From Malacoraja senta (lineage: Eukaryota), in NCBI GenBank assembly GCA_038087875.1, contig CM075993.1, positions 8,620,001 to 8,684,000 on the forward strand: 64,000 nucleotides of DNA, given 5' to 3'. Numbering within the stretch: position 1 is the first letter of the stretch; every line of letters begins with the position of its first letter. Under the pieces are notes generated by a model. It was given only the letters and a program-made list of their open reading frames with translations, was not told the origin of the DNA and searched no databases. A program made the translations under genes and the position numbers. Below are positions 2,979-63,818 of this stretch, piece by piece.

Positions 2979-3006
2979 AACGTTTCGGGCCGAAACCCTT
3001 CTTCAG
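2979..3006 (-). ncRNA. Minimal type-I hammerhead ribozyme motif in a Penelope-derived repeat
   Basis: Minus strand reads CTGAAGA-A-GGGT(TTCG)GCCC-GAAAC-GTT: hammerhead core boxes, stem II and palindromic AACGTT helix III. Confidence 0.65.
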
Positions 3007-6000
3007 ACTTGTCATCTTAGATACTTGCTGAATTTGTGTCCTAACTACATTTGATGGTCTCGTCGGGACTTTGAGGAAGTCACTTCCATTAATATTGCCA
3101 TTGGGAAATGTTAGGTTTAGGTTTATTATTGCCACGTGTATGGTGGTGCAGTGGAAAGCTTTGTGCTGCATAGTATCCAATTAAATCAGATGGTAATGTA
3201 TAGACATTACTAAAATCAAGAGAAACTCAAGCACAATAGGTAGAGCAAAGAGCAGATACAGAGTGTAGAATATTGTTCTCAGCACTGCAGTGCACCAGTT
3301 CCATAGATTAATGTTTGCAATGAGGTAGAAATAAAATGGATATTAGCCTAGCTTATGGAAGGACCGTTCAGAAGCCTGATAGCAGGTTATGTGCAGGAGA
3401 TTAGGATAGGGGGGAAGAGGGTAAATAAGGTCAATTAGATCATCTCCTGTGTTTTTGCTTACACCTTTCCACAGGCCTGAGTGTGTAGTGTCGTTGATGG
3501 CGCTATCTCCTCCCACACCTCGAATGGATTCTATTTTCTTGCAACTCTCACTTCTCCACCCAAGAGTTCATCCTGATGGGATACTGATTTATCAGCTGGG
3601 GACGGTTGGTATAAGAAATGTAAATGCTGTAAACAGTAGGTCAGGCAGCATCTGTGGAGAGAACAACTGAATAAGCATATCTGGTTGAGGCAGAAGAGAT
3701 TAGTTTCACTTACCTTCATATTTGGCACAGACTTCGTAGGCCAAAGGGCTTGTTCCTGTGCTGTGTACTGTTCTACACTGGTGACCTTTCTGTTGAAAGA
3801 TTCAGGATGTGAAACATGAACTATGTTTCTTCCTCCGCAGATGCTGCCTGGGTACTGCCACCATTCCTTTGCAAGGAAGGCTGGCAGATGTAATTTGCAG
3901 TGAGTTTTCTTGGCTGTGTTCAACCTGATGCTATGAAAATAATAGGGTTCAAATTCTGACCTGTGACCTACCATTCTGTTGCTGTCTCCAGTGAGTCTGT
4001 CCTGCTAGTGGGCCAGAATATAACGATTCAGTGCGATGATCCAGACCCAAAATGGTTTCTGTTTCTCCTTCCACAGATGCTGCCTAACTTGCTGGGATTT
4101 TTCCAGCATTTTCTGATTTTATTACAGTAGTTTTCATGCTGGGACATTCATTGTCAAGGTACTTGGTTGAGTATTATTGGAGTTGGATTATAATCTAATC
4201 AGATGTTAACTGAGTTTTGCAAGTTATATGGACATTGTTGTGTGAAGCCTTGTCTCATCATTATAAGTCAATGCGATAATATTCAAATTAGAGAAAATGG
4301 AATGAATACAGATAATCATTCTCTTCGCATGGATTATCACCTTGATATAATCTTGATCATGGATTCAACCATGAAAAGTTCAGCACAATCTTTTCTCATT
4401 TCCTGATTAAGAGATATCTAAACAGAAACTATTATAAACAACTTTCTCCTTTGGTGCAGTGGAAATTTCCACTCCCCTCCCCTTGCAATGGAGAGTTGTA
4501 GACTGTTCCACAGTGTGTACTCTGATTGGAGCCTTGCTTGCAGGCGTGTCTGAGCTCCAGTGAGTACACTGATCCCTTTGTATGGGAGCTCGGTGTCAGC
4601 TGTGGTCAATGTCTCCCACCGTTATTCGCGGATACAGCGGAGAAGAAGAGACTTAAGCACTTAATTTTGTGTTTCTCAGCTAATATTTGGCGCTTTAATG
4701 AGGCTATAGTTTAATTTATTTTAAATTATAGTTTAATGCTATTTAAAGGAGACCAGCACTTACAGAGAGGTTTGTGTCAGACACTGTGGTGTGATCTATC
4801 TACAATCTATCTGAATGTGTTTCTTTCATAGTCTCAGTCATACAGCACATGGTAGTGCTGCTGATCCTCCCAGTCTGCGCTGACCATGAACCACTCATCC
4901 CATTTTATTTTCTCCATTTTCCCATAAACTCCCCCATATTCTACCACTTTGGGGCAGGTTATAGTGGCTAAGTAGTCTAACAACTAGCACCTCTCTGAGA
5001 TGTGGGTCCTCCTATTTCCTGAGTTGCTATGTTAATATGTGGCATTAGACTGCAGATGCCGGAATCTTGAGCAAAAAAAATGATGCAATAGCAAATAAGC
5101 CTGTCAACGCCTCTGCATCAGAAGATTGAGGAGATTTCATGAATGCTCTCTTAAACTTTGATAGGTGTATGGTAGAGAGCATACTTACTTGTTGCATTAA
5201 GGTCTGGTTCGGCAACTCGAACACCCAAAAACGAAGATTACAGAGAGTGGTAAACACGGCCTGAATTTTTATTTATTACTGTATATATTATCTATGTGTA
5301 TTGCGGTTAGGGGCATGTGATCCTGCTGTAAGTAAGAATGTCATTATTCTGTTCTCAGTACATTTGACAGTTAAACACTCTTGACTTTTGAAAAACAAAG
5401 TACTAGGGATTGAGAGCTGTGTGAAGAAGGGCCCCAATCCAAACCTTGTTTGGCCTCCACAGTAAATCCTCTTCTGGGACAGCACGCAAAGAGTCACCAC
5501 ATTCCGGTGCCATCGTGCAACTTCAGTCTCAAGTCTCTCAAATCAAGTCTGATCTTGCCCTAAGGAGGTATGCATTTCCTATTTATGTTCTGAGATCCAG
5601 CATAGTCTCCATGGACTGAATTACCACCTTCTATGTCATTAGGAAATATGAAGTGAGAATAAAGTCCTCCATCCCTGGGAGGTCCTGTACCCGTGATATT
5701 TCTGTGGCACTAAGCTTGACTTGCTGGAAAGTTCTGTTGAGAATATATAAAAGTTCCCTTGCTTTCTATTTCCTATTATTCCCAGAGGAAATGGGGTTGG
5801 GGCCAGAGGGTTGCTACACTGGGAATAATGGAGTGATCCTGTGATTCAGTGTGTCTTATTTTGCATTTGAATCGGAAGTTGTAGTTTCAATCCTCCCCAA
5901 CATATAGGACAACAGTACTGAGGACTGCACCAGAGATTAAATTGAGACATATAGTATCTCTCATTTGGCAGATTATCTGTTCTTTACCCAGTACTATTTG

Positions 6001-6290
6001 TTGGTTCTTGCTTTTTGCAAAGTGGCTGCCAAACTTTCTACATTAAAGCAACAACTGCTGCTCAACTGCAAACCTGTTTGTGGACATTCCAAGGTTGTGA
6101 AGATGTGATGATAAACAGCCTTCCCTTTCTTTCTGCATCGTCGATCTTACACAAACGCACGGTCTGGAAGACAGATATACAGGTAGAGCAAAGCACAAGG
6201 TTCCTAAACAAAGGTTTGTTATATAAGATTTGCAACACTGTCAGGCCATTCAGCCCTATGTCCATTTACCGACCAATATTGTCTGGTAGA

Positions 6291-6414
6291 CACAGAAAGC
6301 TGGAGTAACTCAGCGGGTCAGGCAGTATCTCTGGAGAAAAGGAATAGGTGACATCGCCAATTCCTTTTCTCCAGAGATACTGTCTGACCCGCTGAGTTAC
6401 TCCAGCTTTTTGTG
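6291..6414. repeat. Penelope-derived fold-back element, about 60-bp near-perfect inverted arms
   Basis: aaagctggagtaactcagcgggtcaggcagtatctctggagaaaaggaat followed by its reverse complement; the central hammerhead is deleted. Confidence 0.8.
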
Positions 6415-6831
6415 CCCATCTTTGGTTTAAACCAGCTTCTGCAGTTCCTTCCTACACACTATATCTTCTGCTCTTTGGATGCCCTGAGGCTGTGAAAGGT
6501 ATTGAAATAATAGTAGCTCTTTGCCTATTTTTAAAATGGCAGAAGATTAGCTCCATTCAACTTGTGACTAACAGTAAGGAAAATGTATATTTTTTACTCA
6601 TTTGCTTCTTTGGATCTGGGCATCCCTGGAAAAACCAGCATTTATTGCCCATCCCTATTTGCCATTGTGAAGGAAGTGGTTAGAACCGCTGCAATCCTTT
6701 GGTGATTTTTGGGAGGGAGTTACCAGGATTTAGACCCAGCAGTGATGAAGAGCCATGATATATTTCCTCAACGTGCTGCACAAGGGGAAGAGAAACTTGT
6801 AGTTGGTGGTGTTCCCTTGCATCTGTTGCCT

Positions 6832-10560: not shown

Positions 10561-11078
10561 ATTCATTTAAATGCAATACTTCAGGTTCCTTTTTATCTTT
10601 TAATTTAATCTTACTTGTAAAGTCATTATAACTAAGTTTTAATCTGCTCATAACAATCAAGTGACTGCCATGTTACTGCATTTATCTTATTAACACATCC
10701 ATGTTCCTTAATTTCTTCCACTCTTGCATCTTGGGCTGGCTCCATTTCTCCGCAACTGCCTTGTCGATTGGCTCTCTTTCCTCCTGCCACCTCTCCTTCC
10801 TTCACCCATCTCCCACTCCCGCTCTCTGTTCATTAAATTTTAAGAAGGTTCTGATTTGGTTTATTATTATTGCCATGCGTATTGGAATATAGTGAAAAGG
10901 TTTACATTAAATAAAAAACATAATATGATTGAAACACTCAGCAAGTTGGGCAGAAACAGAATTAATGTTTTGGGTTGAAGACATTTAAAACTTGCCTTTT
11001 TGGTTAAGCTTTCAGTCATCTTTCCTAGAATCCAAGTGCCAAATGTTTTGGTATAGGAAGGAACTGCAGATTTGCAAG

Positions 11079-11314
11079 AATCTTTGCAAGAACTGCAAAT
11101 GCTGGTTTACACTGAGGATAGACACAAAATGCTGGAGTAATTCAGCGGGTCAGGCAGCATCTCTGGAGAAACAGCATGGGTGACATTAAGGGTCGGAACC
11201 GTTCTTCAGACCCTTCTTCTTGAGTCTGAAGAAGGGCCCCGACCCGAAACATCACCCATCCTTTTTCTCCAGAGATGCTGCCTGACCCACTGAGTTACTC
11301 CAGCATTTTGTGTC
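11079..11314. repeat. Penelope-derived fold-back element with hammerhead motif (11226-11253, +)
   Basis: Inverted arms gacacaaaatgctggagtaattcagcgggtcaggcagcatctctggagaaa and its reverse complement; the centre reads CTGAAGAAGGGCCCCGACCCGAAACATC. Confidence 0.75.
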
Positions 11315-11455
11315 AACTATTTTTGTGTGATTACTCTCTCCCAAAGGACCTTGAAGTTTCCTACATTGGAGGCGCTACATACATACAATTCTTTGTTGGT
11401 GTACAAGTAACCCATTGCACATGGACAATTCCAACGTGTTCTTCTGTTATTATAG

Positions 11456-11572
11456 GCTGAAACCGCCATTGGAAATGGACCCTCTGCAGAATGACCGCAG
11501 CCCCTCCCCAAACATGGACGCTATTGAGACCTCCGTGGAAGAAGATAGCTTCGAATCACGTCCGCGTGGAAG
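11456..11572 (+). CDS. gramd2a: GRAMD2A exon (LKPPLEMDPLQNDRSPSPNMDAIETSVEEDSFESRPRG+R)
   Basis: Acceptor ttattatag|, donor AG|gtaccg; 117 nt, phase 2-2, open and in phase with the 18558 exon. Confidence 0.65.
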
Positions 11573-11756
11573 GTACCGCTCTTTGTTGCAATAGAACCTT
11601 CAGATTTCATTATGATATTGGGGCTTAGTGGGAAGGTATGTGAACCAGTGGAATAGACTTGGCAATTGAGGAATGGGAGCTCTGGTTGAAGTGTTTTAAA
11701 TGACATGATAGAGAATTGAACACATTTCCCGTGGATGGGACGTTTACAATCCATGA

Positions 11757-12060
11757 TTTAGTTTAGAGATACAGCATGGATACAGGCCCTTCGGCCCACC
11801 TGATCCACGCCGATTATAGAACTAGTGTGAACAGGAGATCAATGTTATCCCACTTTCTCATCAACTTCCTACACACTGGGTCACTTTACAGAGGCCAATT
11901 GACTTACAAATCCGCACGTTTTTGGAATGTGGACAGAAACCAGAGTACCTGGAGGAAACCCACACGGTCACAGGGAGAACATGCAAACTCCACACAGACA
12001 CCATCCGAGATCAGGGTCGAACCCAGATCTCTGGCGCTGTGAGGCAGCAGCTGTGCGGCC
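11757..12060 (-). mobile_element. HE1-type V-SINE
   Basis: tRNA-like head, V-domain (ttctccctgtgaccgtgtgggtttcctcc), HER1-like tail and (taaac)n end on the minus strand. Confidence 0.85.
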
Positions 12061-14337
12061 TTCAATGAAGTCATTGAGTCGTATAAGTGTAGAAGCAGAC
12101 TCTTTGGTTTTCCAAATCCATCAAGCACATTTACTCCACTTTGCATTTTATGATACTCTTCCCCCACTCCCATCAATTTCTTCAGATGCTATCTCTCACC
12201 TACACATTTGAGGCAATTTACCTTGATCTGTTGACGTATCAACCCGTGTGGATTTAGAATGTGGGAGGAGAATGGAGCACCCAGATAAGACCCATGTGCT
12301 TACGGCAGAAAGAAGCAAATAGCCACCTAGATAGCACCCGGGGTCAGGATTGAACTCATAAACTTGGTACTAAATGCTGCCCTAAATAATCAGGGTCTTT
12401 AAATTAGAACTGGACCATTTCTGGAGTGGAATCCATTTGTGTTTCCCCAAGTGCGAAGAGAAGATTTGGTTGAGGTGTAGAAACTGCTTCATGTTAGGTC
12501 AATGGAGGGGAAGCTTCAGCAGTTGGGTCAGGTATCAGGAAACGCTGGTGACAGGGCGGATGTGGAGAGGATGTTGGGTCCTTTATTTGAGAATCTAGAA
12601 CTGGGGGTCGCTGTCTAAATCTATATCCCATTCCCTTTTGGTGGTTCTGAGTTTATTCTATCAGATGGTTGAGAGTCTTTGGAACGTTCTTCCTTAAAGG
12701 GGTAGTGGAAGCAGAATCTTTAAGTACTTTTAATGCAGAGATAGATAGATTCTTGATGGGGCGAGAGGTTACCTGGAAATGTTGAATTTAAGTTACATTT
12801 GAATCAGTTATAATCTTATTTAATGGTGGAACAGACTGGAAGTGCCTACTTTACCTCCTAATTCATCTGTTTGTATGATTTAAAGTTTTGGACAATAGGA
12901 AGAATACATGTGAGGAAAGGCTTATTGAAGCTGTGATATCTGGAACCCATTACTACAGGACAATGGATTCAAAAAAGAGACTTCAAAATGGACGTTATGG
13001 GCCACAAAATATAAGGACTAATAAAGATTTTCCATAGACTCAATGGACTGAATGGCCTCCTATTATGCTGTAACATTTGATAATTCTATAAAATGTTAGT
13101 GCAACCTTTGAATTATCTCCCCAAAGATTGTTTAAGGATTTTTATCAACTCTCTCATGGTGAAAAAAGATGACCCCAGTTAGTTTCTCAAATTGCTTGAG
13201 ACCACTGTCTTGGTATCTTCCCTTAAGTATTTTGTTTGAACTTCTGTAATGCAGCAGCTGGAACAGTTATCAGTGTTTATTCAAGCTTTCAACCTGAGTG
13301 TTCTGGTGAAATTAGTATTTGATGCCTCTCCTAACTTGACCTTCCCAGCCAGCTTCCTCCTTGAGCTGCTGTGATCTATCTGAAGGTTCTCCCACAGTAC
13401 ATAGGAATTTACATAAGACCCAGTAAAGACAATATATTTCCAAATCAGGGTGGAGTGAAACTTGGAGAAAAACCAATGTGTTGTGGTGTTCTCGTGCAAC
13501 TGATGTCCTTGGCCTACTAAGTGGCAAAGTTTCAGGTTCAGGAGCTGGTGTCCAAGAAGACATTGTGAGATCACAGTTGACCTTGCGGACTGTACACTCT
13601 GTCATCTTGGTGTGAATGTGGGGGAGAGGGCAAGTATTTAGCGGGATAGATGAGCTGTTTTGTTCTGGATGCTGTTGACTTCCTTGGATGATGTTAGTGC
13701 AGGCAAACGGAGATGATTCTATCAGACTCTTGACCTGCGTCTTTTGAAGATGTCAGTCCTTTGAAGAGCCAGGGCACGGGACAGTTAAGAGTCAGGCAAC
13801 TAAGGTTTGTACTGTAAATGCTTCACAGGCTAGAGTCATAGGCAAACAGCACGGAAATAGGCCCTTCGGCCCAACTTGCCCATGCCAACCAAGATACCCC
13901 ATCTACACCAGTCCCACCTGCCTTTGTCTGGCTCATAACCTCTAAACCTTTCCTATCCATTTACCTGTCCAAATGTCTTTTAAATGTTGTTGTAACTGCT
14001 TCAACTACCTCCTCTGGTAGCTCGCACAATATACCATCCACCCTCTGTGCAAAAAAGTTCCCCTTCAGGTTCCTATTAAATTGTTCCCCCTCTTAACCTT
14101 AACCAAAATTGTACATAACTTTTAATATCTCTTTTTCTAAATGTGATTGCTTTAAAAAGGAGACCCGTACTTTTACTGGTTCTGTTATACTGCAACGATT
14201 TGTTCATTTCTATTTAGTTTAGTTTATTGTCACATGTACAGTGAAAAACATTTGTTTGCGTGCTACCCAGTCAAAGATAAAGGGTACAATTAGTTCACTT
14301 CTTCCCACTCCATTTCCCCCCCCCCCCCCTCCCCAGT

Positions 14338-14680
14338 TGCAACCGCAGAAGAAAGATGCAACACCTGTCGCTATACCTCCTCCCTCGACTCTGTCCAGGG
14401 ACCCCGACAGTCCTTTCAGGTTAGGTTCACTTGCACCTCCTCCAACCTCATTTTCACCCTACAAACTGCTGACAACGGACTGTTTCCTTTATCATCGTTA
14501 TTTTTTTGCATATTTTTCATTCATTGTTCTTTATCTCTCCACATCACCCTCTATATTTCTCGTTTCCCTTATCCCTAACCAGCCGGAAGAAGGGTCTTGA
14601 CCCGAAACGTCACCCAATCCTTCTCTCCAGAGATGCTGCCTGTCCCGCTGAGTTACTCCAGCTTTTTGTGTCTATCTAGT
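14338..14680 (+). mobile_element. Deleted Penelope-like element (Neptune-type) 3' fragment with hammerhead remnant
   Basis: Translates CNRRR/CNTCRYTSSLDSVQGPRQSFQVRFTCTSSNLI (Cys linker leading into GIY-YIG), then a 3' region with CGGAAGAAGGGTCTTGACCCGAAACGTC (14584-14611) and the same tail as the fold-back arms. Confidence 0.8.
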
Positions 14681-16329
14681 TCAAGATAAAGTTTGATTGA
14701 AGATCCTGGTCATTTGCCTGATAACAGAGATAACACCTTATTCACTATCTTATTTACCCTTCACAGTGAGGCAACAATGCTGACAAGTCATCTTTCAGAA
14801 GGCAAATAGTACAAACCACAAGGCAAATAAAATGAATTGATTGGAGTTGCCATAGATTTGCAGACTAGATTAACAACCAATTTCCGGGGAAACCAATGCA
14901 CAACGATGGAGTAGAGGATGAGCTACGGAGAGGGGGAGATGGGGTGGGAAACAGGAATTAGAAGCCCTGTGTACATCAGATGGGGGCTGAGTGGTCTGTA
15001 TCAGAGATGCGGCACTTGTGTGTGTAAATACAATGGGACCACCAAAGGAGACGGGCATCTTGGGTCAGAATGGCACAATGGCAATGAAACAAGTTTGCAA
15101 ATCCTGGAACACTGACAGTGATGGGACCTTTACTCTCATATAGTGTGTTAGCAAGTTCCTGCAGGACCTGTTGGAGAATCTTTTCTCAACTGCTCATTAT
15201 AACTGAGGGTCCAGAACAACCATTAAAAATCCCATTCATTTACAGAAATCTACCAGCAAAGAGCAGTGGAAAGATTCAGGGGCTGGCTTTTGTCAGCAGT
15301 AACTGGTATGTTAAAACTGCCAATGTACATCTTGCTAATTCACTGCTAATTTGTTGAAATGGAATTCTGTAAGGGTTCTCAAACCCATCTCATGCAGCCA
15401 CTGGATGGGAAAGATGAACCCATGGATTAATAATATTTCCCACGGCACGATGGAGGTAAAGTTCTATTATACAATCCATGGAGCACAATTCGCATACTGT
15501 CCGTGATACAGATATTTTCTCGTGACGTAGCTTGAGGCCATTTGGTCCATTGAGTCTGTGCTGGCTCTAATTCATATCTTGCGTGTTCTTACCCTTCGCT
15601 CTCACTTGAGGAATAGCACGGATTTCCTGACCATTTGCCAGTGTGCAGCACGGTTCCAGTGGGTCAGCACAGTGTCTCGTTGTGGGGGTCGTTTATTTCT
15701 GTTCCAATTCATCGTGCTAACCCCATGTAGTTACTCAGCTGCAGGTAGACCACTCCGCACAGACTTGTTATGCTGAAGAGCCTGCTTCTGTACTGAATCG
15801 CTCTATGACTCTATATTGGATCTCACTAGTGGGCAGTGGCAGACATCTCCTGTCATTAACCCTTGATCAATTCCTTGACCCTTATCAACCATCACGACCC
15901 GAAAATGCTCTCCACCGCTTTAAAGACTCCAACATCAGGGAGATGCTCAATTCCAAAGAAAGATCCAAAATAGTCCACTGATCCTCCCCTGACAAACCAT
16001 TGGTCATAAGATGAAGGCGACACGATGACCCAATGAATGGCTTTGTGCAGAGACAGAATGAGATAGCACAGTGTCGCAGTTGGTAGAGCACAGCCCCAGT
16101 GACCCGGGTTCAATCCTGTCCTTGGGTGCTGCCTGTGTGGAGTTTGCATGTTCTTCCCCCGGGGTGCACCGGTTTCCTCCCACATCCCAAAGATATGTAG
16201 ATAGGTTAACTGTGCACTGTAAATTGCCCATGGTTTGTGGTTGAGTGGTAAAATCTGGGGGAAGTTGATGAGAATGCGGGAAGAATAATATGGGATTATT
16301 ATAAATTTGTGGATTATTGAGTCAGAGTC

Positions 16330-51694: not shown

Positions 51695-51855
51695 ACAGAG
51701 AGAGAGAAAAAAAAAAGAGAGAGAGAGAGAGAAAGAAAAAAAAAAGAGAGAGAGAGAGAGAAAAAAAAAAGAGAGAGAGAAAAAAAAAAAAAAGAGAGAG
51801 AGAGAGAAAAAAAAAAAAAAAAGAGAGAGAGAGAAAAAAAAAAAAGAGAGAGAAA

Positions 51856-51886
<31 letters not shown>

Positions 51887-51941
51887 AAAAAAGGAAAAAA
51901 AGAGAGAGAGAGAGAGAAAAAAAGAAAAAAAGAAAAAAGAA
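51614..51941. repeat. Compound microsatellite: (CT)n, (CA)n, then an irregular (GA)n/An tract
   Basis: Read directly from the sequence. Confidence 0.95.
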
Positions 51942-52011: not shown

Positions 52012-53038
52012 ATTTTTATTTTTTATTTCTATTTATTAGAAGTACATTACATTACAACCACATACATTAGTACTGAGTTAATACATTAGTACATACAAAA
52101 GAGTTAAGAAATAGACCCTAGAAAAGAAGGAGAAAGAGAAAGAGGAAAAAGAGAGAAACAAATATTTTTTATGAGCATTACGTAAATGGGACATACCAAC
52201 TCTTCAACTATCATCCCCCCTTACCTGACCTCAATTTTTTTTAAGGTACCTTTGCACCCTATATTTGTAACACATTTAGTTCTGGACCATCTTCCGTTAT
52301 TCCGAAGATAATCCATTCTGCTTTGGGTATCAGTCTTATTTTAAATAATTTTGTAAAGATTTTTGTACAGAAAACGAATGAGTGCGCTATAGTAGCTTCT
52401 TGGGATTGACATTTATCACAAATAGATGATACATTTGGGAAAATTTTATGAATTTTAGTTTTGGAATAATATAATCTATGTAAAATTTTAAATTGTATTA
52501 AAGTGTGTCTTACATTAATCGAACATTTATGCACGTTTAATAAGTGTTCATTCCAACTTTCCTTTGAAATTTTAATAGCTAACTCTTGTTCCCAGTCTCT
52601 TCTGATACCCTCCGTAGATGGTATTTGTACATTTAAGATAATATTATACAAATATGATATTAAGTTTGCTGATTCAGCTTTTATCTGCATTGCCTCATCC
52701 AATACATCTGCTGGGTTATTATAATGATCTTTTGTATATTTTTTCAAATAGTCGCATATTTGAAAATATTTAAAATATTGATTATTTCCGAGTTTATATT
52801 TTATTTGTAATTGTTGAAATGAAAGTAATTTTCCAGTTTCATACAAGTCACCGAGCGTTTTAATTCCTAGTCTATCCCAATGTGTAAAAGCTTTATCTAT
52901 AATAGAAGGATTAAACGAAGGGTTATTAACTATAGGTATTAAAAGTGATAACTTTTTTTAATTTTAAATTTTGTTTTATTTGTTTCCAAATTCGGATTGT
53001 ACTATGAATAATTGGGTTCTTATTATAATTTATAATAT
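52012..53038 (-). mobile_element. 5'-truncated L1-clade LINE nested in the ERV remnant
   Basis: ORF2 C-terminus (NPIIHSTIRIWKQ...QFKILHRLYYS...CDKCQSQEATIAHSFVFC), AATAAA and A-rich tail; 18-bp TSD with 2 mismatches (51994-52011, 53039-53056). Confidence 0.88.
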
Positions 53039-53819: not shown

Positions 53820-53837
53820 ATCCTGCCGACTACGCCA
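53820..53837 (-). promoter_or_regulatory. Retroviral primer-binding site, tRNA-Ser
   Basis: TGGCGTAGTCGGCAGGAT is complementary to the recalled vertebrate tRNA-Ser 3' end ATCCTGCCGACTACG-CCA, including the CCA. Confidence 0.85.
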
Positions 53838-54359
53838 AGTTCTGTGAAAGAAATTAATTTCTTCTGCAAAGTGATCACCCCACCTACGTTTGACTTCCCC
53901 AGTGTGTGGGGGACCACACTGATGAATCAAACAACCACCCCTGTTCCTCTCACCACAGATGCTGCCTGACAGCTGGGTGTTCCCTGTTTATATTTCAGAT
54001 TTCCTGCACTATTGAATTCCGTATGTACAGGTGGAATTCTCTGCCACAGATGGCAGTGGAGGCCAATTCACTGGATATATTCAAGAGAGAGTTAAATATA
54101 GCTCTTAGGCCTAATGGAATCAAGGGACATGGGGAGAAAGCAGGAACGGGGTGCTGATTTTGGATGATCAGCTGGCTCGAAGGGCCAAATGGCCTACTGC
54201 ACCTATTTTCGATGTTTCGATGTTTCTATTTCCTCTTTGTGTTTCCTGCATGTTCTGGGATCTAGTTCGAGGTGTCCTCTGGACCGAGACTTGAGCCCAC
54301 AGCCTGCAACCTGGTGCAGACGGCACAACCTGCCGCACCAAGGCTGCCAGTCAAGACTC

Positions 54360-54548: not shown

Positions 54549-55760
54549 ATGGCGATTTTTTCCACAGACGCCATGGGAAAAAACGGACAGGGGGAAGAGG
54601 CGAGCGACATAGCCGACAGAAGTCGGGAAAGTCGGGAGTCCGCGGTTAGAGACCAACCGCCTCTAAACCCCGGTACAGTCGCCAGCGGTGAGCATAGCGA
54701 CTGTGGACCTGGGGCTGGTGAAAACACAGTCAGCGCCTGTCGGGCAAAAGACAAAGTTTAAATCCCAACGGAGGGAGTCCCAGGCAATGAAGAAGCTCCA
54801 GGGCTAGATACTGCTTTAGAGCGTATTGCCCAAATAGAAAGCCTTTTACACAGGCTGTTGGAGCAAAGTTCACTCAGGGAGGAGTGTTCTGAAAGCCAAG
54901 CTGCTGGAAACAGTTCAAACAGCTCCTGGTACAGGGCTAGATACTGCTTTCGAGCGTATTGCCCAAATAGAAGCCTTTTTCATAGGTTGTTGGAGCAAAA
55001 GTTCACTCAGGAAGGAGTGTACTGTAATCCAAGCTGCAGGAGCAGCTTAACAGCACCTGGCTCAGGGCTGATGGAATGCACCCTCAGGAATGAGGAGCGT
55101 GCTACGGGTCATGAGATTTCAGACCCCGACTCTGACAGTGAGGCTGTACAAGGCGATGAAAGGCAGCTGCCAGATGTTCCACCCCTGGTAGTAGGATTCG
55201 CTGCCCCGTCAGGGTCAGGAGAGCCATTAGGAAGAACTGGCCTCCTTAATAAATTACTTGGTTTACCATTAGCTGGAACAGCATGAAATGGATGAGACTG
55301 CAAGAGTATCTGGAATCAGTTGCAGAGAATATTAAAGCTGCTGGGTTCTGGAATAACTGCTTTTACCAGAATAGCAGGTAACAACCAAAAGATGACGAAG
55401 TTGCATCAGCAAGCACTGGGGTTGCTATGCAGCACCCACTTCGAGAAGTGCTATACGGTCTACTATGAATCTGAAATTTGCAGCACTCTGCAAACCAAGT
55501 AATATACAAATTACCCAACTTACTCTTTGGAGAGATCTCGGGAGACGTATTAAAGAGTTGGAAGATGAAGCGAAAACAGGATTGATGAAGACATCAATGG
55601 TTGTGAAGTCTGTAAAGAGGAAGTATCCTTTCAGACGTCATACGGATCCTGGACCAAGTCGCTCATCAACGCAGGGGCGTAGTTGGCGGCCTGCAGCGGG
55701 AGCAAGAACCAGTGGGCGTGCTTCCGGGAGAACCCAGGAATCTCAGGGTACTCAAATGAC
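54549..55760 (+). pseudogene. DIRS ORF1 (gag-like), disrupted
   Basis: Broken frames upstream of RT; contains a tandem duplication of about 132 bp (54799, 54932, partial 55063). Assigned by position. Confidence 0.55.
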
Positions 55761-57673
55761 TCAAGAGGTAGGTGGTCCTGGTTCTCATGGGAACATACTA
55801 ACTGGATTAAGTCCAAAAGTTGGAGGCAGGTTACATTTCTTCTATAATAATTGGAAGAAAATTACTTCAGATGTGGTAATCCTGAATAATATACAAGGAT
55901 TTCGAATTGAATTCAATCCAAATTATGATTTGCCTGTTCAGCATGTTCCTAGCCGAACTCTGCACTTTGTACAAAAAGAAGTGATGGAGGTTCAGGTTGC
56001 AATTGAAACCCTATATAAAAAAGGGGTTATTGAAAAATCAGTCTACCAAAGTCACCAATTTGTGTCAAATATATTCCCTCGATCAAAAAAGGATGGAGGA
56101 TGTAGGATTCTTGTAGATTTGATAAATCTGAATCCTTTTGTGCAATTTAGACATTTTAAAATGGAAACATTTGTGACTGCCAAACAGCTTATTTCAGAAG
56201 CATGTTATATGGCAACTATAGACTTGAAAGATGCATATTCTTCAGTGTCTGTTCATTCAGAAGATAGGAAGTATCTTAAATTTAAATGGATGAACCAGTT
56301 GTGGCAGTTCAAAGCTCTGCCTAATGGGTTAATATCTGCACCCAGAATATTCACAAAATTGTTAAAACCAATTCTGGGCTTGCTGAGTAGCCAGGGGCAT
56401 GTACTAATGGCATATTTGGATGATGTCTTGATTATAGGAAAGACAAAACAGTCAACAGAAGTATCTGTTGCAGTTGTGAAATCAACTTTTGAAAATTTGG
56501 GGTTTCTAATTCATCCACAGAAATCTAGGTTAACACCATGTACCTCTATTAATTATTTGGGGTTCACAATTGATTCAGTCCAAATGAATATTACTTTGCC
56601 CAGGGAAAAGGGTGGATTTGATTAAAGATTGCAGTAATCTCCTAAACGAGCAAAAACCTTCAATTAGACAGGTGGCTCGTGTACTGGGAAAATTAGTAGC
56701 AGCATTCCCAGCAGTCCAATTCGGACCATTACATTATCAACAGCTGCAGAGACTTAAAGAACAGGCACCGAGAATGCATGTTGGTCATTTTGATAGAACC
56801 ATGCAACTAACAACAAATGCTGTTTCTGATCTGCAGTGGTGGATTCTACATGTCTCAAGCAGTTCCAGCAAAGTGCTGATTGAACAACCTTCCATGATAT
56901 TACAAACTGATGCCAGTGCACCAGGATGGGGTGCAACTGACTTAACATCTAGCTGAGGAGGCAGATGGAATCAGGAAGAGTCATTGTTACTGCAGACATG
57001 GGGAATTAACTATTTGGAGCTTCTAGGATGTTTCTATGGGCTCCAAGCTTATTGTTCTAACACAACTAATAAGCATGTTCAAGTTCAAATTGATAACACA
57101 ACAGTAGTTGTTTATATTAATGATATGGAATTAAGTCGGTGTCTTGTGACAAAATGGTTAATCAACTTTGGGCTTGGTGTATTGAAAAGAACATTTGGAT
57201 TTCAGCTATCTATCTACCAGGTAGAATGAACGATAGCAGACACCAGGTCACGAAAAGTTCCATGATAATAAAGAATGGATGTTGAATCAAGAGGTATTCA
57301 ATGATATAGTCATCAGATTTGGAATGACCGACATCGACTTGAATCATCAGCTATCGAGATATGTCTCATGGAAACCAGATCCAGGAGCAGTGGCGATTGA
57401 TGCTTTCTCGCTACATTGGGGTGGTATGTTTTCATATATATTTCCACCTTTCTGCCTCATAAGCCAATGTTTGCTTAAAATCAGGCAAGATGCTGCTTCA
57501 AGGGTATTGGTAGTACCAGATTGGCCTACACAGCCATGGTATCCGTTGATATTAGAATTAACAACACAAATGTTGATGAAAGTCCCAAAAAAGAGTAATT
57601 TATTGCTGCACCCTGTACAGGGGAACAACATCCATTATATGATCGTTTGGATTTGTTGATTTGCAGGTTTTAA
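55755..57673 (+). pseudogene. DIRS RT / RNase H / methyltransferase-like ORF, disrupted
   Basis: VGGRL..F...W, HFKME, IDLKDAY, LPNGL.SAPR.FTK, YLDD; TDASAPGWGA, INYLEL, DNTT; DAF...W..., FPPF, VVPDWPTQPWYP. Frameshifts near 56615 and 57130, stop at 56954. Confidence 0.93.
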
Positions 57674-57675
57674 GA

Positions 57676-57922: not shown

Positions 57923-60900
57923 TTTTTTTTTTTTTTTTTAATATTTTTTTATTGGAGATGCGTACACAACCTAGTTACATCATTACAGTCTTACATTATT
58001 AAATTGATAATATTGTTAAATATTACCAATACCTTTTGCTTTTTTTTTTTTTAAAGCTAAATAGAACTAAAGAGAAAGGTGAAGTAAAGAAAGAGAAAAA
58101 AGAGAAGAAAAATAAAAAAATAAATAAAAATTAAACAAAAAAACAAAACAAAAACAAAAAACAAAAACAAAAAAAATGAAAAAAAAGATAGTTAAAGAAG
58201 AATGGAAAAATTTATTGAAATAGAAAACTTCATTCGAGATATATTCGTACATTTCTAGATATAGCGTTTCATCCATTCTTTAGCCCGGGTGCTAGTCAGG
58301 TTCCTGTGCTGAACTGTTCTGGCCCTTTAGGTAGTCAATAAAAGGAGACCATGTTCCAACGAATAATTCCTGTTTATCCAACAGGGAGAGTCTGATTCTT
58401 TCCACATTTAAGGTCTCCGTCATTTCTATAATCCACATTTTAATTGTGGGGGTCGTAGGGCCTTTCCAAAATTTTAGAATTAATTTTTTTCCTGTTATTA
58501 AACTATAATCAATAAAGTTTCTTTGTGTTATTCTAAATGTTTGATTTAATTCTAATATTCCAAGTATTATTAATTTTGGATCTGGGTCCAATTTTGTGCT
58601 GGTTACTTTAGATATTATACTGAAAATATTTACCCAGAATTGTTTAATTTTTATACAGTTTGCAAACATATGAGATAAGGTAGCTTCTAAATGTTGACAT
58701 TTATCACATATAGGTGAGATATGTTGAAAAATTTTATGTAGTTTTGTTTTGGAATAATGTAACCTATGTATTACTTTGAATTGTATTAGAGAATGTCTAG
58801 CATTTAATGAACATTGATGTATGTGTTGCAAACTTTCTTCCCAAGTATCTTTCGTTATTATTTGATTTAATTCTTTTTCCCATGTTTGTCTATGTAAGTC
58901 CGTCGATGGAATGTCACTGTCTAATAAGATATTATATATGTAAGATATTAATTTTTCTGTATGAGGATGTTTGTTCCAACATTCATCAAGAATTTCTGAA
59001 TTTCTAATTTGAAAATTTTGAGTATTTGATTTTACATAATCTCTAAGTTGAAGATATCTGAAGTAATCATTTCCTCGAAGTCCGTAAGTCTGTTGCAACT
59101 CCTGAAATGTCAGAAAAGTGCCTTCCTTGTAAAGTTGTCCCATATTTTTAATTCCATAATTCTTCCATTGTGTAAAACCCCCGTCCAACCATGAAGGCTT
59201 AAACAAAGGGTTATTCACAATTGGAAGAAAAAGTGATAAATTATCTAATTTTAATGTCTTTTTTAATTGTTTCCAAATTCGTATAGCACTAAATATTATA
59301 GGGTTTTCCCTATAATTTTTTTTGTTTAATTTAGACGTAGCAAATAAAATCGAACCGATATCAAAAGGTAAACAATCTTCCTTTTCCATTTTTAACCAGT
59401 CTGGCTGATGATCTATTTCTTCCAACCAGAAATTCATATTTTTAATATTAACTGCCCAAAAATAAAACAAAAAGTTGGGTAAAACCAAGCCTCCATTCAT
59501 TTTTGATTTACACAAATGTCTTTTGTTTATCCTATGATTCTTATAATCCCAGATGAAATCATTAACAATAGAATCCAGTTTTTTAAAAAAGGTTTTTGCC
59601 AGATATATCGGAATTGTCTGAAAAAGGTATAATATTTGCGGTAAAAAAATCATTTTTATGGCATTAATTTTGCCTACCATTGAGATAGGAAGTGTTTTCC
59701 AGTATTGAATATTCTTATGTAGTTTATTTAGTAATGGTGGAAAATTTGCTTTAAATAATGATGTATATTTCTTAGTTATATAAATACCTAGATATTTAAA
59801 TTTTTCCTTTACTATTTTAAATGGAAATTGTTGTATTATCTGTTTGTTATGTTCCCTTATTGGCATAATTTCACTTTTATTCCAATTTATTCTGTATCCT
59901 GAAAGTGAACCAAATTGGGTTATTAGCTTTAATAAGTTTGGAATACTAATTTCTGGTTTTGTAATGTAAATTAATACATCATCTGCGTATAAAGAAATTT
60001 TATTCACTGTATCCTTTGTGTTATATCCGTGTATTTCCGGATGCCCCCTGACTCTTTCTGCAAGTGGCTCAATAGCAAGCGCAAATAATAATGGAGATAA
60101 CGGGCATCCTTGTCTACAACCTCTAGATAGACTAAATTTAGATGACAACCTTTGGTTTGTAAATATTCTAGCCGTGGGATTTGTATATAACAGTTTTATC
60201 CATGTACAGAATTTCTCCCCTAACTGCATATTTTCCATCACCGAAAATAAATAAGACCATTCGACCTGATCAAATGCTTTTTCAGCGTCAAGTGAGATTA
60301 TTGCTAGATCTTCCTTAATATTTCTCTTGGAATATATAATATTAAATAATCTTCTTAGATTATAATATGAGTACCGCTTCTGAATAAAGCCTGTTTGGTC
60401 AGGGTGTATTAATTTATTCATCACTGTACTTAATCTATTCGCTAGTATTTTAGTTAATATTTTCTGATCTGTATTTAAAAGTGCGATTGCTCTATATGAT
60501 CCCGGGTCTTCCGGATCTTTATCAGCTTTAGGAATAAGTGTTATTATAGATTCATTTAAAGTGTCTGGAAGTTTCTGTTGAGTATAGATATACTCATACA
60601 ATCTTTGTAAACGTGGGCAAAGCAAGTCATGAAATTTTTTATAAAATTCGGAGCCTAAACCATCTGGTCCTACTGCTTTACCATTTTTTAAAGAGCCGAT
60701 AGACTCCTCAATATCTTTTATGGTAATCTCCTTTTCTAATAATTCTCTATCGTTTGAATCTAAACCTTTTAAATTACATTTTAGTAAAAAATCTGCTATT
60801 TCTTCTGATTGTCCTACGGTTTTAGTTGAATAAAGGTTATGATAGTATTGGAGAAATCTATCATTTATGTCCTTAGGCATTTTTAATAATTCTCCTGTCT

Positions 60901-61522
60901 CTGTTCTAATTTTATGAATTATTTTTTCCCCTTCCATTTTTCGTAACTGACGTGATAATAGTTTTTGTGGTTTGTCTCCAAATTCAAAATGTAATTGTTT
61001 GGTTTTTTGATAAAGTTTTATTACTTGTTCTGAATACATTTTATTTAATTTATATTTTAATACAGCAATTTTATTATGTTTTAAAATAGATGGCATTCTC
61101 GCATTTTCTATATCTAGTTGCTTGATTTCACTTTCCAATGTTTGTTGTTTAATCCTGTTCTCTTTATTATAAAATGCTTGAGCGGAAATTAATGTACCAC
61201 GAACATACGCTTTAAACGTTTCCCACATAAGAGAAGTAGGTGTGTCAGGGTTGTCATTTACCTCAAAAAATATTTGAATCTGTTTAATAATATATTCCTG
61301 GCATGATCTTTCGTTCAAAATTTGTGGGTTGAATCTCCAATATGTTTGTTTCTCGGACATTCCATTTAATTTAATCATGAATGTTACAGGTGCGTGATCT
61401 GAGATTATAATGTTATGATATTTTGAATTATAAATAAATGGGATAAACCTAGAGTCAACCAAAAAATAATCTATTCTTGAGTATGTTTTATGTACTGGTG
61501 AGTAAAATGAGTATTCCCGTCT
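57923..61522 (-). mobile_element. Young 5'-truncated L1-clade LINE (3.6 kb) inserted antisense in the DIRS recombinase gene
   Basis: Poly-A tail with AATAAA; exact 15-bp TSD attgccctcatattt (57908-57922, 61523-61537). Confidence 0.96.
58292..61522 (-). CDS. L1 ORF2 (endonuclease C-terminal part, RT, CCHC domain), uninterrupted but N-truncated
   Basis: SRIDYFL and ISDH (APE); KAVGPDG, YRAIALLN, LDAEKAFD, RQGCPLSP, YADD, KYLG; CDKC...HMFANC. Confidence 0.93.
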   Translation of the reverse strand, partial: RREYSFYSPVHKTYSRIDYFLVDSRFIPFIYNSKYHNIIISDHAPVTFMIKLNGMSEKQTYWRFNPQILNERSCQEYIIKQIQIFFEVNDNPDTPTSLMWETFKAYVRGTLISAQAFYNKENRIKQQTLESEIKQLDIENARMPSILKHNKIAVLKYKLNKMYSEQVIKLYQKTKQLHFEFGDKPQKLLSRQLRKMEGEKIIHKIRTETGELLKMPKDINDRFLQYYHNLYSTKTVGQSEEIADFLLKCNLKGLDSNDRELLEKEITIKDIEESIGSLKNGKAVGPDGLGSEFYKKFHDLLCPRLQRLYEYIYTQQKLPDTLNESIITLIPKADKDPEDPGSYRAIALLNTDQKILTKILANRLSTVMNKLIHPDQTGFIQKRYSYYNLRRLFNIIYSKRNIKEDLAIISLDAEKAFDQVEWSYLFSVMENMQLGEKFCTWIKLLYTNPTARIFTNQRLSSKFSLSRGCRQGCPLSPLLFALAIEPLAERVRGHPEIHGYNTKDTVNKISLYADDVLIYITKPEISIPNLLKLITQFGSLSGYRINWNKSEIMPIREHNKQIIQQFPFKIVKEKFKYLGIYITKKYTSLFKANFPPLLNKLHKNIQYWKTLPISMVGKINAIKMIFLPQILYLFQTIPIYLAKTFFKKLDSIVNDFIWDYKNHRINKRHLCKSKMNGGLVLPNFLFYFWAVNIKNMNFWLEEIDHQPDWLKMEKEDCLPFDIGSILFATSKLNKKNYRENPIIFSAIRIWKQLKKTLKLDNLSLFLPIVNNPLFKPSWLDGGFTQWKNYGIKNMGQLYKEGTFLTFQELQQTYGLRGNDYFRYLQLRDYVKSNTQNFQIRNSEILDECWNKHPHTEKLISYIYNILLDSDIPSTDLHRQTWEKELNQIITKDTWEESLQHIHQCSLNARHSLIQFKVIHRLHYSKTKLHKIFQHISPICDKCQHLEATLSHMFANCIKIKQFWVNIFSIISKVTSTKLDPDPKLIILGILELNQTFRITQRNFIDYSLITGKKLILKFWKGPTTPTIKMWIIEMTETLNVERIRLSLLDKQELFVGTWSPFIDYLKGQNSSAQEPD

Positions 61523-62253
61523 ATTGCCCTCATATTTGGTTCTGGATTCAGAAAGAAACTCAATTGGGTCACACCCAATTGTTTCCAGACTAATGAAAGG
61601 AATCTTTAATTCCAAACCACCGAAACCTAGGTACGTGACAATCTGGGATGTAAGTGTGGTACTGAAACTACTTCATGATGTTCATCAAGTGTGTCTTTAC
61701 CTTTGGTCAAGCTCAGTATGGAAGTATTCATGTTTATGGCATGAGTGACAGCACAACGAGTGCAAACACTTGGAAAATTACATATAGACAGTATGGAAGT
61801 AACTGAAGACAAGGTTACATTCTATATCTATGACCTACTAAAGCAAATTAGGCCAGGTGTGACAGGATTTAAAATTATGCTGGCAGCATATCCAAATGAT
61901 CCATGTCTCTGTATTAAGACATATTTATTACAATACATTGAGGTCACAAAGAATTTGAGAATACGGAAACTGGGTTTTTGATCACACACAAGAAACCACA
62001 CAAGAGAGTTTCAATACAGACTATTTCCAGATGGATAAAAGAAGTCTTAACAGCTGCTGGTATTAACACTTATGTTTTTACGTCTCACTCGACTAGGGCA
62101 GCAGAAATGTCGGCGGCCAGGGCAAAAGACGGCCCCGTCGACCATATCCTCGCAGCCGCCGGGTGGTCCAATGAGTTGATGTTTCAACATTTTTACCATC
62201 GGCCTATTGTTAATGCGGGGTTGTTTGCAGAAACTATTTTAAGTTCTGTGTAA
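61523..62253 (+). pseudogene. DIRS tyrosine recombinase, catalytic part
   Basis: HPIVSRLMKGIFN.KPPKPRY...WDV, AQRV (R), TISRWIK, HSTR (HxxR), AGWS (W), FY (Y); contains frameshifts. Confidence 0.92.
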
Positions 62254-62535: not shown

Positions 62536-62658
62536 CCCACCACGACCCTACCCTCTATCATAAAGGTCAGATGGAAGTTCTTGTCTTACTCGTTTTAGTA
62601 TGAGACTATATTACTTCGGTTGTTGTTTTTTGTGATTTCACACCGCTGCTTTGAAGAT

Positions 62659-62765
62659 TGACGCGCAGGCGCACTGGCGGGGTTCTTCACGTAATCACCT
62701 ACGTAACTCCTCATAAAATAAAGATCAAACTTCAAACTTAGGTAAGTTCTCGTTTAATCTTACTA
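62659..62765 (+). repeat. DIRS right ITR plus 3' extension
   Basis: ITR at 62659-62719; the extension at 62720-62765 is matched only by the ICR. Confidence 0.93.
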
Positions 62766-62809
62766 GTCCTCAGCATCCATGCATTAGTCTAGTTTGGATA
62801 CCGATCTAT

Positions 62810-63255
62810 TACAGATGCATACGGCACAGAAAGAAGCCCTTCAGCCCAACTTGTCAATGACAACCAACGTTCCCCATCTATGCAGGATACACCTGCCCGT
62901 GTTTGGCCCGCATCCCTTTAAATCTTTCCTATCCATGTACCTGTCCAAATATCTTTTAAATGTTGCAATTATACCATCCTCCACTATCTCCTCTAGCAGC
63001 TCATTCCATACACCTTCAACCCTGAGTGAAAGGTTGCCCCACAGATTCCGATTAAATCTTTCCTCTCACCTTAGACTTATGTCCTCTGGTTCTTGATTCC
63101 CCTACCCTGGGTGAAAGAATCGATGTATTCACTCAATCTTCCCCTCATGATCTTATACACCTCTAGAAGATAACCCCTAAGCCTCCTGCACTAGAGGGAA
63201 TAAAGTCCCAGCTTGCTCAACCTCCCCTGTAGCTCAGACACTTGAGTCCTAGCAA
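62810..63255 (-). mobile_element. CR1 LINE 3' fragment
   Basis: Same family as 16330-16820. Confidence 0.85.
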
Positions 63256-63818
63256 CATGAACCATTCTATCAACAATTACAGAGCGGTCCTGACCTACCA
63301 TTTACCTCAATGGAGACCCTCGGACTATCTTTAATCAAACTTATCGTGCACTATACATTGTGTGTAGGAAGGAACTGCAGATGCTGGTTTAAACCAATGA
63401 TAAACACAAAAAGCTGGAGTAACTCAACTGGTCAGGCAGCATCTCTGGAGAGGAATAGGTGACATTTCAGGCCGAGATCCTTTTTTAGACTGACCCTTGA
63501 CCCCTAGGAGAAGAACAGTTATATTTGTTATCATTTTCTGGTCATGAAGTCTGACTTCTGTGCGTTGAATATCTTGGAGGTCTTGAACTGTGTTTTTTTT
63601 TTATTTGACTAAGTGATTCATGTCAAGAGTGTAGGAAGGAACTGCAGGTGCTGGTTTAAACCGAAGATAGACACAAACATTGGAGTAACTCAGCGGGTCA
63701 GGCAGCATCTCTGGAGCAAAGAAGTTTCAGAAGAAGGTTCTCAACCCGAAACGTAGCCTATTCCTTTTGTCCAGAGATGTTGTGCGAACTGCTGAGTTAC
63801 TCCAGCTTTTTACATCCA

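Follow-up and report, generated by a model that had tools for sequence, protein, structure and literature searches.

Why does a minimal hammerhead ribozyme motif recur along a 64,000-nucleotide stretch of skate DNA (hereafter the window) that contains the gene GRAMD2A, and could its intronic copies cleave the host pre-mRNA? Here we report that the motif stands at the front of repeat units of 90-135 nt, which are very probably the 5'-truncated 3' ends (pseudo-LTRs) of Neptune-clade Penelope-like elements, deposited in at least three waves, with the motif a passenger in GRAMD2A introns. The copies fall into subfamilies A (young, with 6-8% pairwise difference), B, and C (old).

The recurrent motif CTGAAGA-A-(4-bp stem, 4-nt loop)-GAAAC, pointed out in an initial annotation of this DNA, is present where it had been placed. 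Seven strict matches to CTGANGA-N13-GAAAC occur in the window, against a mean of 0.06 (maximum 1) in 100 order-2 Markov simulations, and a hammerhead profile built from 11 copies gave 45 matches at E<=1 and none in the reversed window used as control. The alignment took in those 21 arms of the 45 hits in which the motif could still be recognised, and 16 of the 21 served for the subfamily test; boundaries were counted on 25 arms, old fragments being excluded. Rfam hammerhead models had no match (E<=10) in the whole window or at 22820-22920, while Rfam microRNA-type matches at 6299-6406 and 19318-19495 scored below the gathering threshold and were set aside as reflecting fold-back loci. Exact-pattern scans of metagenome and viral contigs returned 0 loci. 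The copies in the window are as follows.

2917-3011, minus strand: young subfamily A copy without tail, intact core at 2979-3006, GUU triplet; antisense to GRAMD2A and upstream of its first mapped exon
22780-22956, both strands: subfamily A insertion with a 14-bp target duplication (22780-22793 and from 22942/22943), in which an inverted 3' tail piece (22801-22843, minus) is joined to a plus arm (22845-22942)
22849-22876, plus strand: intact hammerhead, sense to GRAMD2A, in intron 21516-24437
51125-51273, plus strand: subfamily A copy that starts 5 nt ahead of the core and runs through the whole tail, with an 8-bp target duplication and U16.1>C; outside the mapped gene
590-757, both strands: old head-to-head locus, minus arm tailed, G12>A in the plus arm
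2419-2616, both strands: old head-to-head locus with a TCAG-N-CTGA palindrome at the junction, plus arm tailed
6287-6456, both strands: intronic head-to-head locus whose arms start near the ACGU palindrome and cleavage triplet, without core; plus arm tailed
11085-11316, both strands: head-to-head locus with motifs 11209 (minus) and 11226 (plus), minus arm tailed, 82-bp hairpin fold
19298-19514, both strands: head-to-head locus joined at TCAG-N-CTGA; a 39-nt direct duplication gives two sense motifs, 19388 (G12>A) and 19427 (palindrome lost)
22187-22400, both strands: head-to-head locus with motifs 22276 (minus, G5>U) and 22278 (plus, G12>A), plus arm tailed
26206-26298, plus strand: old solo copy with A6>U and G12>A, intronic and sense
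43089-43328, minus strand: two same-direction copies, 43170 with its core deleted and about 30 nt of upstream pseudo-LTR, 43327 with core intact and a stem II mismatch
45568-45843, both strands: solo copy 45573 (plus) adjoining a head-to-head locus (45647-45843) in which both arms begin within the motif; plus arm tailed
63363-63816, both strands: solo tailed copy 63488 (minus, G5>A and G8>A) and a head-to-head locus (63630-63816) with U4>A in motif 63728 (plus); minus arm tailed

Only two of the 21 aligned arms, 2979-3006 (minus) and 22849-22876 (plus), are fully intact, as had been proposed: the core matches at all 11 scored positions, stem II (4/4) and helix I (2/2) are fully paired, and the ACGU palindrome is present. 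The copies earlier called near-intact do carry the motif, but each is damaged. Essential positions are hit in 14584 (U4>G) and 51138 (U16.1>C), judged on the aligned arms, 11226 lacks the ACGU palindrome and is one pair short in stem II, and 43327 (minus), previously placed at 43300, has the stem II mismatch. The type-I order of boxes (CUGANGA, GAAA, UH) with helix II is found in all three subfamily consensuses; an extra base follows A9 (column 12 is A in 20/21 arms), G-C is the commonest pair at 10.1-11.1, and the ACGU palindrome (15.2-16.2) is kept in subfamilies A and B and CpG-decayed in C. That the motif is a minimal type-I hammerhead of Penelope type, in a repeat of Penelope origin and high copy number, is supported. 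The family is very abundant in contigs of four runs (which is not a copy number). Helix I comprises only 2 pairs in both intact copies, and the earlier caution about its shortness was well placed.

Stem II had been described as pairing while its sequence varies. In the 21 aligned arms 79.8% of cells pair, but covariation did not rise above shuffles: whole-structure measures were equalled by 194, 237 and 133 of 500 shuffles (at low power, with 21 arms from three subfamilies), RNAalifold predicted 0 pairs on the aligned arms, and what separates the variants quoted in support is the loop and a single U-A to U-G change. When six copies were folded at minimum energy, no hammerhead fold emerged (z-scores -1.7 to +1.2). 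For 22849, in calculations that take no account of tertiary contacts, Mg2+ or proteins, nearest-neighbour folding gave a probability of 0.0008-0.003 for stem II together with an open core, and a double hammerhead reached -7.1 kcal/mol against -14.4 for two monomers.

The identity of the parent element is indicated by coding relics.

14339-14455, plus strand: Neptune-type coding relic found by protein homology, covering the zinc linker's CxxC half and the start of the endonuclease
14456-14676, plus strand: pseudo-LTR of that relic, about 130 nt of it pyrimidine-rich, with hammerhead 14584 and a 3' end without tail
20729-20977, minus strand: second Neptune coding relic, from the end of the RT to the zinc linker (E 5e-7 to protein P0008), its frame broken by a stop and small indels, without attached hammerhead

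The first relic breaks off just before the GIY-YIG tyrosines, the GIY-YIG motif being absent. An exhaustive protein search matched it at 64-79% identity to seven RT/GIY-YIG proteins. The full linker C-x4/5-CxxC is visible in five of them; Pfam GIY-YIG is matched by two, with scores under its cut-off, and RT-like stretches were recognised by eye in two. Pfam did not recognise the 38-aa relic itself, and a word-index search gave no scoring relative. The top-ranked matches P0001-P0003 were set aside as multi-stretch or unaligned, P0002 and P0003 also having unrelated Pfam hits, and P0010 was excluded as a chimeric fragment. In the available part of PMC8557442 the zinc linker marks Neptune and Nematis; the Neptune label used here comes from the linker and the best matches, and Nematis has the same linker. 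The 64-kb window holds no full-length RT-EN reading frame or element. The initial annotation had the motif directly following a Penelope coding fragment (14338-14680); the Penelope relic is real, but some 130 non-coding bases intervene. Behind 14677, a loose-end consensus in contigs of all four runs shows other genomic copies running on into the tail.

Nine loci in the window are head-to-head, and the optional tail of 35-40 nt is found on exactly one arm in 8/9 of them and on both arms in none. Target duplications were sought at 13 loci, with a match at four and two retained as convincing, namely 14 bp at the 22780 insertion (4/2000 random pairs reached >=13) and 8 bp at 51125-51273 (47/2000 reached >=8); those at 45647, where the match falls in repeat sequence, and at 19298, 9 bp and offset from the ends, were dropped. 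Arms start 1-8 nt upstream of C3, before the core, in 17/25 cases and inside or after the motif in 5/25, and only 3/25 reach further upstream, a pile-up that random truncation does not explain. The junction palindromes fall in the hammerhead, TCAG-N-CTGA just before the core and ACGU at helix III.

Homology shows the source to be an element with an RT, zinc linker and GIY-YIG endonuclease. In its 3' pseudo-LTR a minimal type-I hammerhead precedes two ends, the first by about 65 nt and the second, that of the tail, by about 100 nt. As the anatomy and the accessible part of PMC11167929 suggest, its protein may nick DNA and prime reverse transcription at one of two internal sites, which would give copies with or without the tail; most cDNAs would be short, and many may resolve as head-to-head pairs at the short palindromes.

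An alternative, possible but clearly less probable, is a short non-autonomous SINE-like unit of about 135 nt, beginning 5 nt ahead of the core and reaching to the tail, perhaps also in a palindromic version, mobilised by Neptune proteins, with the hammerhead a passenger or a marker of the unit's 5' edge. The clustering of arm starts favours it, as does the 51138 copy, which spans -5 to the tail end between its 8-bp duplications. Of 10 B-type arms, none continues into the upstream reference, 130 nt taken from the 14584 copy, although arms within a locus are not independent and subfamilies A and C have little or no upstream reference. The TCAG-N-CTGA junction is common to three loci, but the other six head-to-head junctions differ and the tail switches arm, as independent events would give. 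Longer copies are, moreover, common, because at least 94 contigs of run X10 cover the upstream pseudo-LTR at 14479. Such a unit is compatible with truncated Neptune 3' ends and could account for part of the family alongside them.

Whether the core is under constraint depends on the level at which it is compared. Among the three subfamily consensuses 0/11 core columns vary against 19/57 flank columns (p=0.027), and across the pooled 21 arms, whose selection also favoured a recognisable motif, a smaller share of non-CpG core positions than of flank positions is changed (18/206 against 196/1067, p=0.0005), with p=0.056 against the conserved block (94/681). Within subfamilies (16 arms) the core decays like the flank (9/153 against 72/864, p=0.42), although this test has little power and the trend, 5.9% against 8.3%, leans toward conservation. 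We read the pooled excess as reflecting master-level differences. G12 is changed in 6/21 arms, similar to other CpG columns (41/164). In this small sample, active masters keep the core and inserted copies lose it, largely via CpG deamination, which strikes G12 and the ACGU palindrome. Conservation of the core in the dispersed copies is not supported, and two of the three findings that the initial annotation had named as counting against it, absent covariation and a core mutating like its flanks, were obtained, if on few arms.

A retrozyme-type cycle, in which the hammerhead would cut tandem units into monomers, these would form circles and Penelope proteins would put them back into the genome, is very unlikely. 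The type-I motif and Penelope origin match the model of bioRxiv 2026.07.22.740005, and the 39-nt duplication sets 19388 and 19427 in tandem, but both of these motifs are broken. None of the 14 tandem-repeat rows of the window is an array, the whole motif lies at the 5' end of a unit, units end at Penelope ends and not at the cleavage site, and the 2-bp helix I contrasts with about 6 bp in canonical motifs (PMC4209133). The label "retrozyme-like" applied earlier is hence not borne out.

The coding exons of the host gene were mapped by tblastn, with approximate edges.

4886-36706, plus strand: GRAMD2A coding exons
4886-4954, 11457-11573, 18556-18618 and 21444-21515, plus strand: first four mapped exons, the first of them isoform-specific and a weak match
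24438-24545, 25611-25709, 27010-27081 and 31533-31598, plus strand: next four mapped exons
33183-33341, 33937-34029 and 36596-36703, plus strand: last three mapped exons

A contig of run X2 carries three of the mapped exons in the right order, and no first exon further upstream, as other GRAMD2A isoforms might use, came to light. The gene and its strand are as the initial annotation had them, but of the copies described as sense to it only 22849 is intact, sense and intronic, because the 2979 copy lies on the opposite strand, before the first mapped exon. The 22849 copy is predicted to cut behind 22876, which leaves about 1560 nt to the next exon.

That such copies cut the pre-mRNA, in trans or with Neptune protein, and lower GRAMD2A output where the element is expressed, we consider highly improbable. 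In its favour, besides the intact sense copy and the abundance of the family, the anole motif cleaves in vitro once its protein is added (accessible part of PMC11167929), and an engineered fast hammerhead in a zebrafish intron reduced expression up to 20-fold (accessible part of PMC11856399). Against this, the nearest sense motif, 22278, carries G12>A and is locked in a hairpin, two molecules could pair over only 4+2+2 bp, the double fold is less stable than two monomers by about 7 kcal/mol and less stable than the best cofold by 20, and the 22849 triplet is GUU. Sense copies are not depleted in the gene, since 8 sense motifs stand against 4 antisense (p=0.39); 4/8 of the sense motifs (11226, 19388, 19427 and 22278) sit in fold-back hairpins of 76-87 bp. 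Spliced GRAMD2A-type contigs were found in related runs, though these need not carry the 22849 insertion, and no pile-up of ends appeared over 10800-28000 among the matches listed from contigs of 4/11 runs, contigs being unable to show RNA ends.

Published assays point the same way: a minimal monomer did not cleave and dimers did little (PMC4209133), 1/9 Xenopus dimers cleaved (bioRxiv 2026.07.22.740005), and, in the available text of PMC11167929, the anole motif depends on the element's protein and not one RNA-seq read has an end at the site. Cleavage of GRAMD2A pre-mRNA by intronic copies is thus unlikely, because both copy anatomy and these assays argue against it. In masters, cleavage would require either a double hammerhead or assistance by the element's protein; a lone copy in an intron, which has no helix III, a helix I of 2 bp and no intact partner nearby, would be a passenger. 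A host-regulatory role would be notable and is without support in the present data. It is a far-fetched reading that young intact sense intronic copies are dormant ribozymes, active only under Neptune expression, when Neptune protein or abundant RNA provides the missing helix III partner, and that the palindromes also set the end of reverse transcription, although it would, if true, link bursts of the retroelement with the cutting of numerous host pre-mRNAs throughout skate genomes and account for the 17/25 arm starts before the core.

Minimal hammerheads in the pseudo-LTRs of metazoan Penelope-like elements were described in 2014 (Cervera and De la Pena, PMC4209133). The skate motifs have the same type-I order with CUGANGA and GAAA boxes, an additional base separating 9 from 10.1, the G10.1-C11.1 pair and a palindrome at 15.2-16.2 that stands in for helix III, and likewise occur mostly as lone dispersed copies, reported there in fish Xena, Poseidon and Neptune. 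Compensatory helix changes serve in that paper as added support and do not belong to its search descriptor. Helix I, at 2 bp, is shorter than the 4-5 bp of Schistosoma and is paralleled only by a Drosophila virilis variant, and helix II has 4 bp against 6-8 bp in those examples. Shark and skate terms are absent from the two supplement files of that paper that were available. Our literature search found nothing on Penelope hammerheads with skate or shark, or on skate Neptune; most subscription papers and Repbase lay outside its coverage, and a name may exist.

As far as the available text of PMC8557442 and PMC3846280 goes, Neptune elements show the same linker before GIY-YIG, heavy 5' truncation, inverted head-to-head copies, junction palindromes, a 30-40-bp tail on one end only and occasional 8-10-bp target duplications. 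The skate window differs in lacking a full-length reading frame, in that its junction palindromes coincide with hammerhead elements, and in the clustering of 5' ends at the core's upstream edge. Neither of the last two features is stated in the text compared, and the clustering bears on how Penelope-like elements finish reverse transcription. The anole Poseidon element PAc (Frangieh et al. 2024, PMC11167929, in the part available) likewise has two 3' ends separated by the tail, with the hammerhead shortly upstream. PAc belongs to another clade, and its motif overlaps the ORF start, is protein-assisted in assay and is dispensable for insertion, whereas the skate family is described from sequence.

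Non-LTR retrozymes (available parts of PMC7229834 and bioRxiv 2026.07.22.740005) are likewise non-coding, pseudo-LTR-related carriers of a type-I hammerhead and often intronic (42-44% of Xenopus copies; bioRxiv 2026.07.22.740005); the same preprint reports retrozymes in the sole chondrichthyan surveyed and dispersed monomers in Xenopus. In the parts available, retrozymes repeat in tandem, each unit measuring about 150-450 bp, their motifs are canonical or paired, and they have circular RNAs, in contrast to the lone or inverted 90-135-nt ends of the skate. For the question of what the hammerhead does in Penelope-like elements (accessible text of PMC8557442 and PMC11167929), a very abundant family with a young subfamily offers good material. 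The skate family is an addition to the catalogue begun in 2014, with a motif kept in masters and lost in copies.

The sequence CTGAAGA-A-[4-bp stem, 4-nt loop]-GAAAC, the core of a minimal type-I hammerhead, is present at the positions reported in the initial annotation. A strict pattern for it occurs seven times in the window, where simulation gives a mean of 0.06, and searching with a profile made from 11 copies recovers 45 stretches at E<=1, with none in the reversed window; Rfam hammerhead models gave no match in the window. In an alignment of 21 arms (an arm being one repeat copy in one direction) with a recognisable motif, and with position numbers and box roles after PMC4209133 and general hammerhead knowledge, only 3006(-) (2979-3006) and 22849(+) (22849-22876), named by motif start, retain all 11 scored core positions and the ACGU palindrome together with every pair of stem II (four) and of helix I (two). 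These two had been called intact and remain so, whereas the copies called near-intact are altered: 14584 (U4>G) and 51138 (U16.1>C) at essential positions, 11226 in stem II and the palindrome, and 43327 in stem II. At alignment columns 32-33, the cleavage base and the next base, 11 of the 21 arms carry CA, 4 TG, 2 TA and 1 CG, a pattern of CpG decay; GUC may be the ancestral form of the GUU triplet found in both intact copies.

Translation of 14339-14455 gives the CxxC half of a zinc linker and, after it, the opening residues of the endonuclease, and an exhaustive protein search with this relic returned 10 proteins, seven of them at 64-79% identity. Among its relatives, five contain the whole linker and four, by eye, a GIY-YIG-type domain after it; two have a Pfam GIY-YIG match, below the Pfam cut-off. 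In PMC8557442 the whole linker is a marker of the Neptune and Nematis clades. Because that paper set and bioRxiv 2026.07.22.740005 place Neptune in vertebrates, we call the source element a putative Neptune, by a linker that is common to Nematis. The motif had been described as directly following a GIY-YIG coding fragment, but the relic stops short of the GIY-YIG tyrosines, and about 130 nt separate it from the motif; the 14584 copy is therefore internally deleted. Similarity search returned further relics:

20729-20977, minus strand: second coding relic
53823-53957, 30848-30907, 19201-19293, 42907-42969: weaker coding relics

Copies terminate at one of two 3' ends, about 90 nt after the first core base (C3) or 35-40 nt beyond that, and the longer end continues behind 14677 in contigs of all four runs compared. 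At nine head-to-head loci, each of two inverted arms, a profile of this 35-40-nt tail matches a single arm at eight and never both arms; at head-to-head locus 19298 the tail was recognised by eye only. Target duplications were found at the 22849 (14 bp) and 51138 (8 bp) insertions among 13 loci tested, while random control pairs reached 13 or more in 4/2000 and 8 or more in 47/2000. An inverted truncated copy, a junction palindrome and a single-end tail constitute Penelope-like insertion anatomy in PMC8557442 and PMC3846280, the tail being explained by two internal reverse-transcription start sites in PMC11167929; the anatomy in the window is the published one.

Arm 5' ends accumulate at the core edge. 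In a count of 25 arms, where arms of one locus are non-independent, the long upstream reference exists for subfamily B alone and the start of arm 19388 was read separately, 17 have their first base 1-8 nt upstream of C3, 5 start within or past the motif and 3 extend further upstream. The exact junction falls at TCAG-N-CTGA, which overlaps the first core box, in three loci, and one head-to-head junction lies near the ACGU palindrome. We infer either folding back or annealing of cDNA ends at these palindromes, or amplification of a short master (active source element) as a unit. Hammerhead cleavage was rejected as the cause, because cleaved RNA would begin 28 nt further on.

When all 21 arms are pooled, non-CpG positions change less often in the core than in the flank (18/206 versus 196/1067, p=0.0005); against a conserved block the comparison is 18/206 versus 94/681 (p=0.056). 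When 16 arms were divided into subfamilies A (young), B and C (old), the expectation that core boxes change more slowly than flanks held among subfamily consensuses (0/11 core versus 19/57 flank columns differ, p=0.027) but not within subfamilies (9/153 versus 72/864, p=0.42). Because of this conservation between consensuses and flank-like change within subfamilies, we conclude that the motif is selected in masters, with no selection detectable in copies, where the small sample could miss a modest effect. G12, in a CpG, changed in 6/21 arms, as did CpG columns overall (41/164). The covariation suspected in stem II does not exceed that of shuffles (the observed values are equalled or exceeded in 194, 237 and 133 of 500), and RNAalifold on the aligned arms gave no consensus pairs.

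The host gene is GRAMD2A on the plus strand, with motif copies sense to its pre-mRNA, as first proposed. Eleven exons, mapped with little skate and ray proteins, extend from 4886 to about 36706, the first (4886) being a weak match to one isoform; among the matches listed, at least one contig spans three exons in order. Exon 24438-24545, which encodes a GRAM domain piece (E 9e-10), is 100% identical along its length to little skate GRAMD2A, while its identity with ray proteins is 97%; a skate is therefore the most probable source of the window. Eight motifs within the span are sense and four antisense (p=0.39); 22849 is the sole intact sense copy, that at 2979 being antisense and upstream. At 31533-31619 protein P0011 continues past the usual exon end into the intron, which suggests a truncated GRAMD2A isoform or a retained intron.

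Cleavage of this pre-mRNA by 22849, whether protein-assisted or trans-paired, appears unlikely. In favour of such cleavage, expression fell by as much as 20-fold when a zebrafish intron carried a fast engineered hammerhead (PMC11856399). The 22849 copy is without helix III and its helix I is 2 bp. Its nearest sense neighbour, 22278, carries G12>A inside a fold-back hairpin; sense motifs 22278, 11226, 19388 and 19427 are all locked in such hairpins, of 76-87 bp. Nearest-neighbour models, which ignore tertiary contacts and proteins, predict an open core with stem II in 22849 at a probability of 0.0008-0.003. In these models the double hammerhead, at -7.1 kcal/mol, is less stable than two monomers (-14.4) and than the best cofold (-27.2). 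In published assays minimal monomers showed no cleavage and dimers cleaved weakly (PMC4209133), one of nine Xenopus dimers cleaved (bioRxiv 2026.07.22.740005), and the anole motif required protein, was dispensable for insertion and left no RNA-seq read ends (PMC11167929). In predicted folds of 14584 (14584-14630) and 22849, the core stretch GAAGAAGGG pairs with the pyrimidine run that begins right behind the cleavage site, so that the core is masked, and such a fold could be an off state. Four fold-back loci in GRAMD2A introns (6287-6417, 11119-11316, 19298-19514 and 22187-22367; modelled hairpins of 59-87 bp, -114 to -151 kcal/mol) are likely dsRNA substrates for editing or small-RNA production, and on these models a dsRNA effect on the pre-mRNA would be more plausible than cleavage.

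Other repeats in the window are as follows:

58292-61672, minus strand: uninterrupted 1126-aa reading frame with Pfam domains RT (E 2e-41) and zf-RVT, presumably a LINE-1/Tx1-like element
52259-52957, minus strand, and 42061-42420, plus strand: pieces related to that frame
55396-57659, plus strand: RT frame of 409 aa (E 8e-23), then frameshifted RNase H- and methylase-looking pieces, suggesting what we take to be a broken DIRS-type element
11842-12068, 27483-27620, 29556-29782, 34607-34833, 35416-35642, 36942-37168, 44466-44692, 49857-49957: second abundant SINE-like family without hammerhead (repeat families D1, D3, D7, D9), presumably resembling the shark/ray HE1 or V-SINE group

Simple repeats at 51628-51938 and 58096-58186 are long and of CA, AG/A-rich and A-rich type; their A runs are irregular, perhaps through homopolymer error in long reads.

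In sequence features the skate family agrees with the minimal hammerheads that were described in 2014 from pseudo-LTRs of Penelope-like elements in fish and numerous other animals (PMC4209133), and by analogy its motif would work as theirs do. The label retrozyme-like, given in the initial annotation, is not supported: the family lacks two tested features of non-LTR retrozymes (PMC7229834), tandem arrays, of which none occur in the window, and a canonical type-I motif with a helix I of about 6 bp. No description of this motif family in skate or shark came up in the literature searched, whose coverage was incomplete. The element is of a known kind, and the skate family is an added member.
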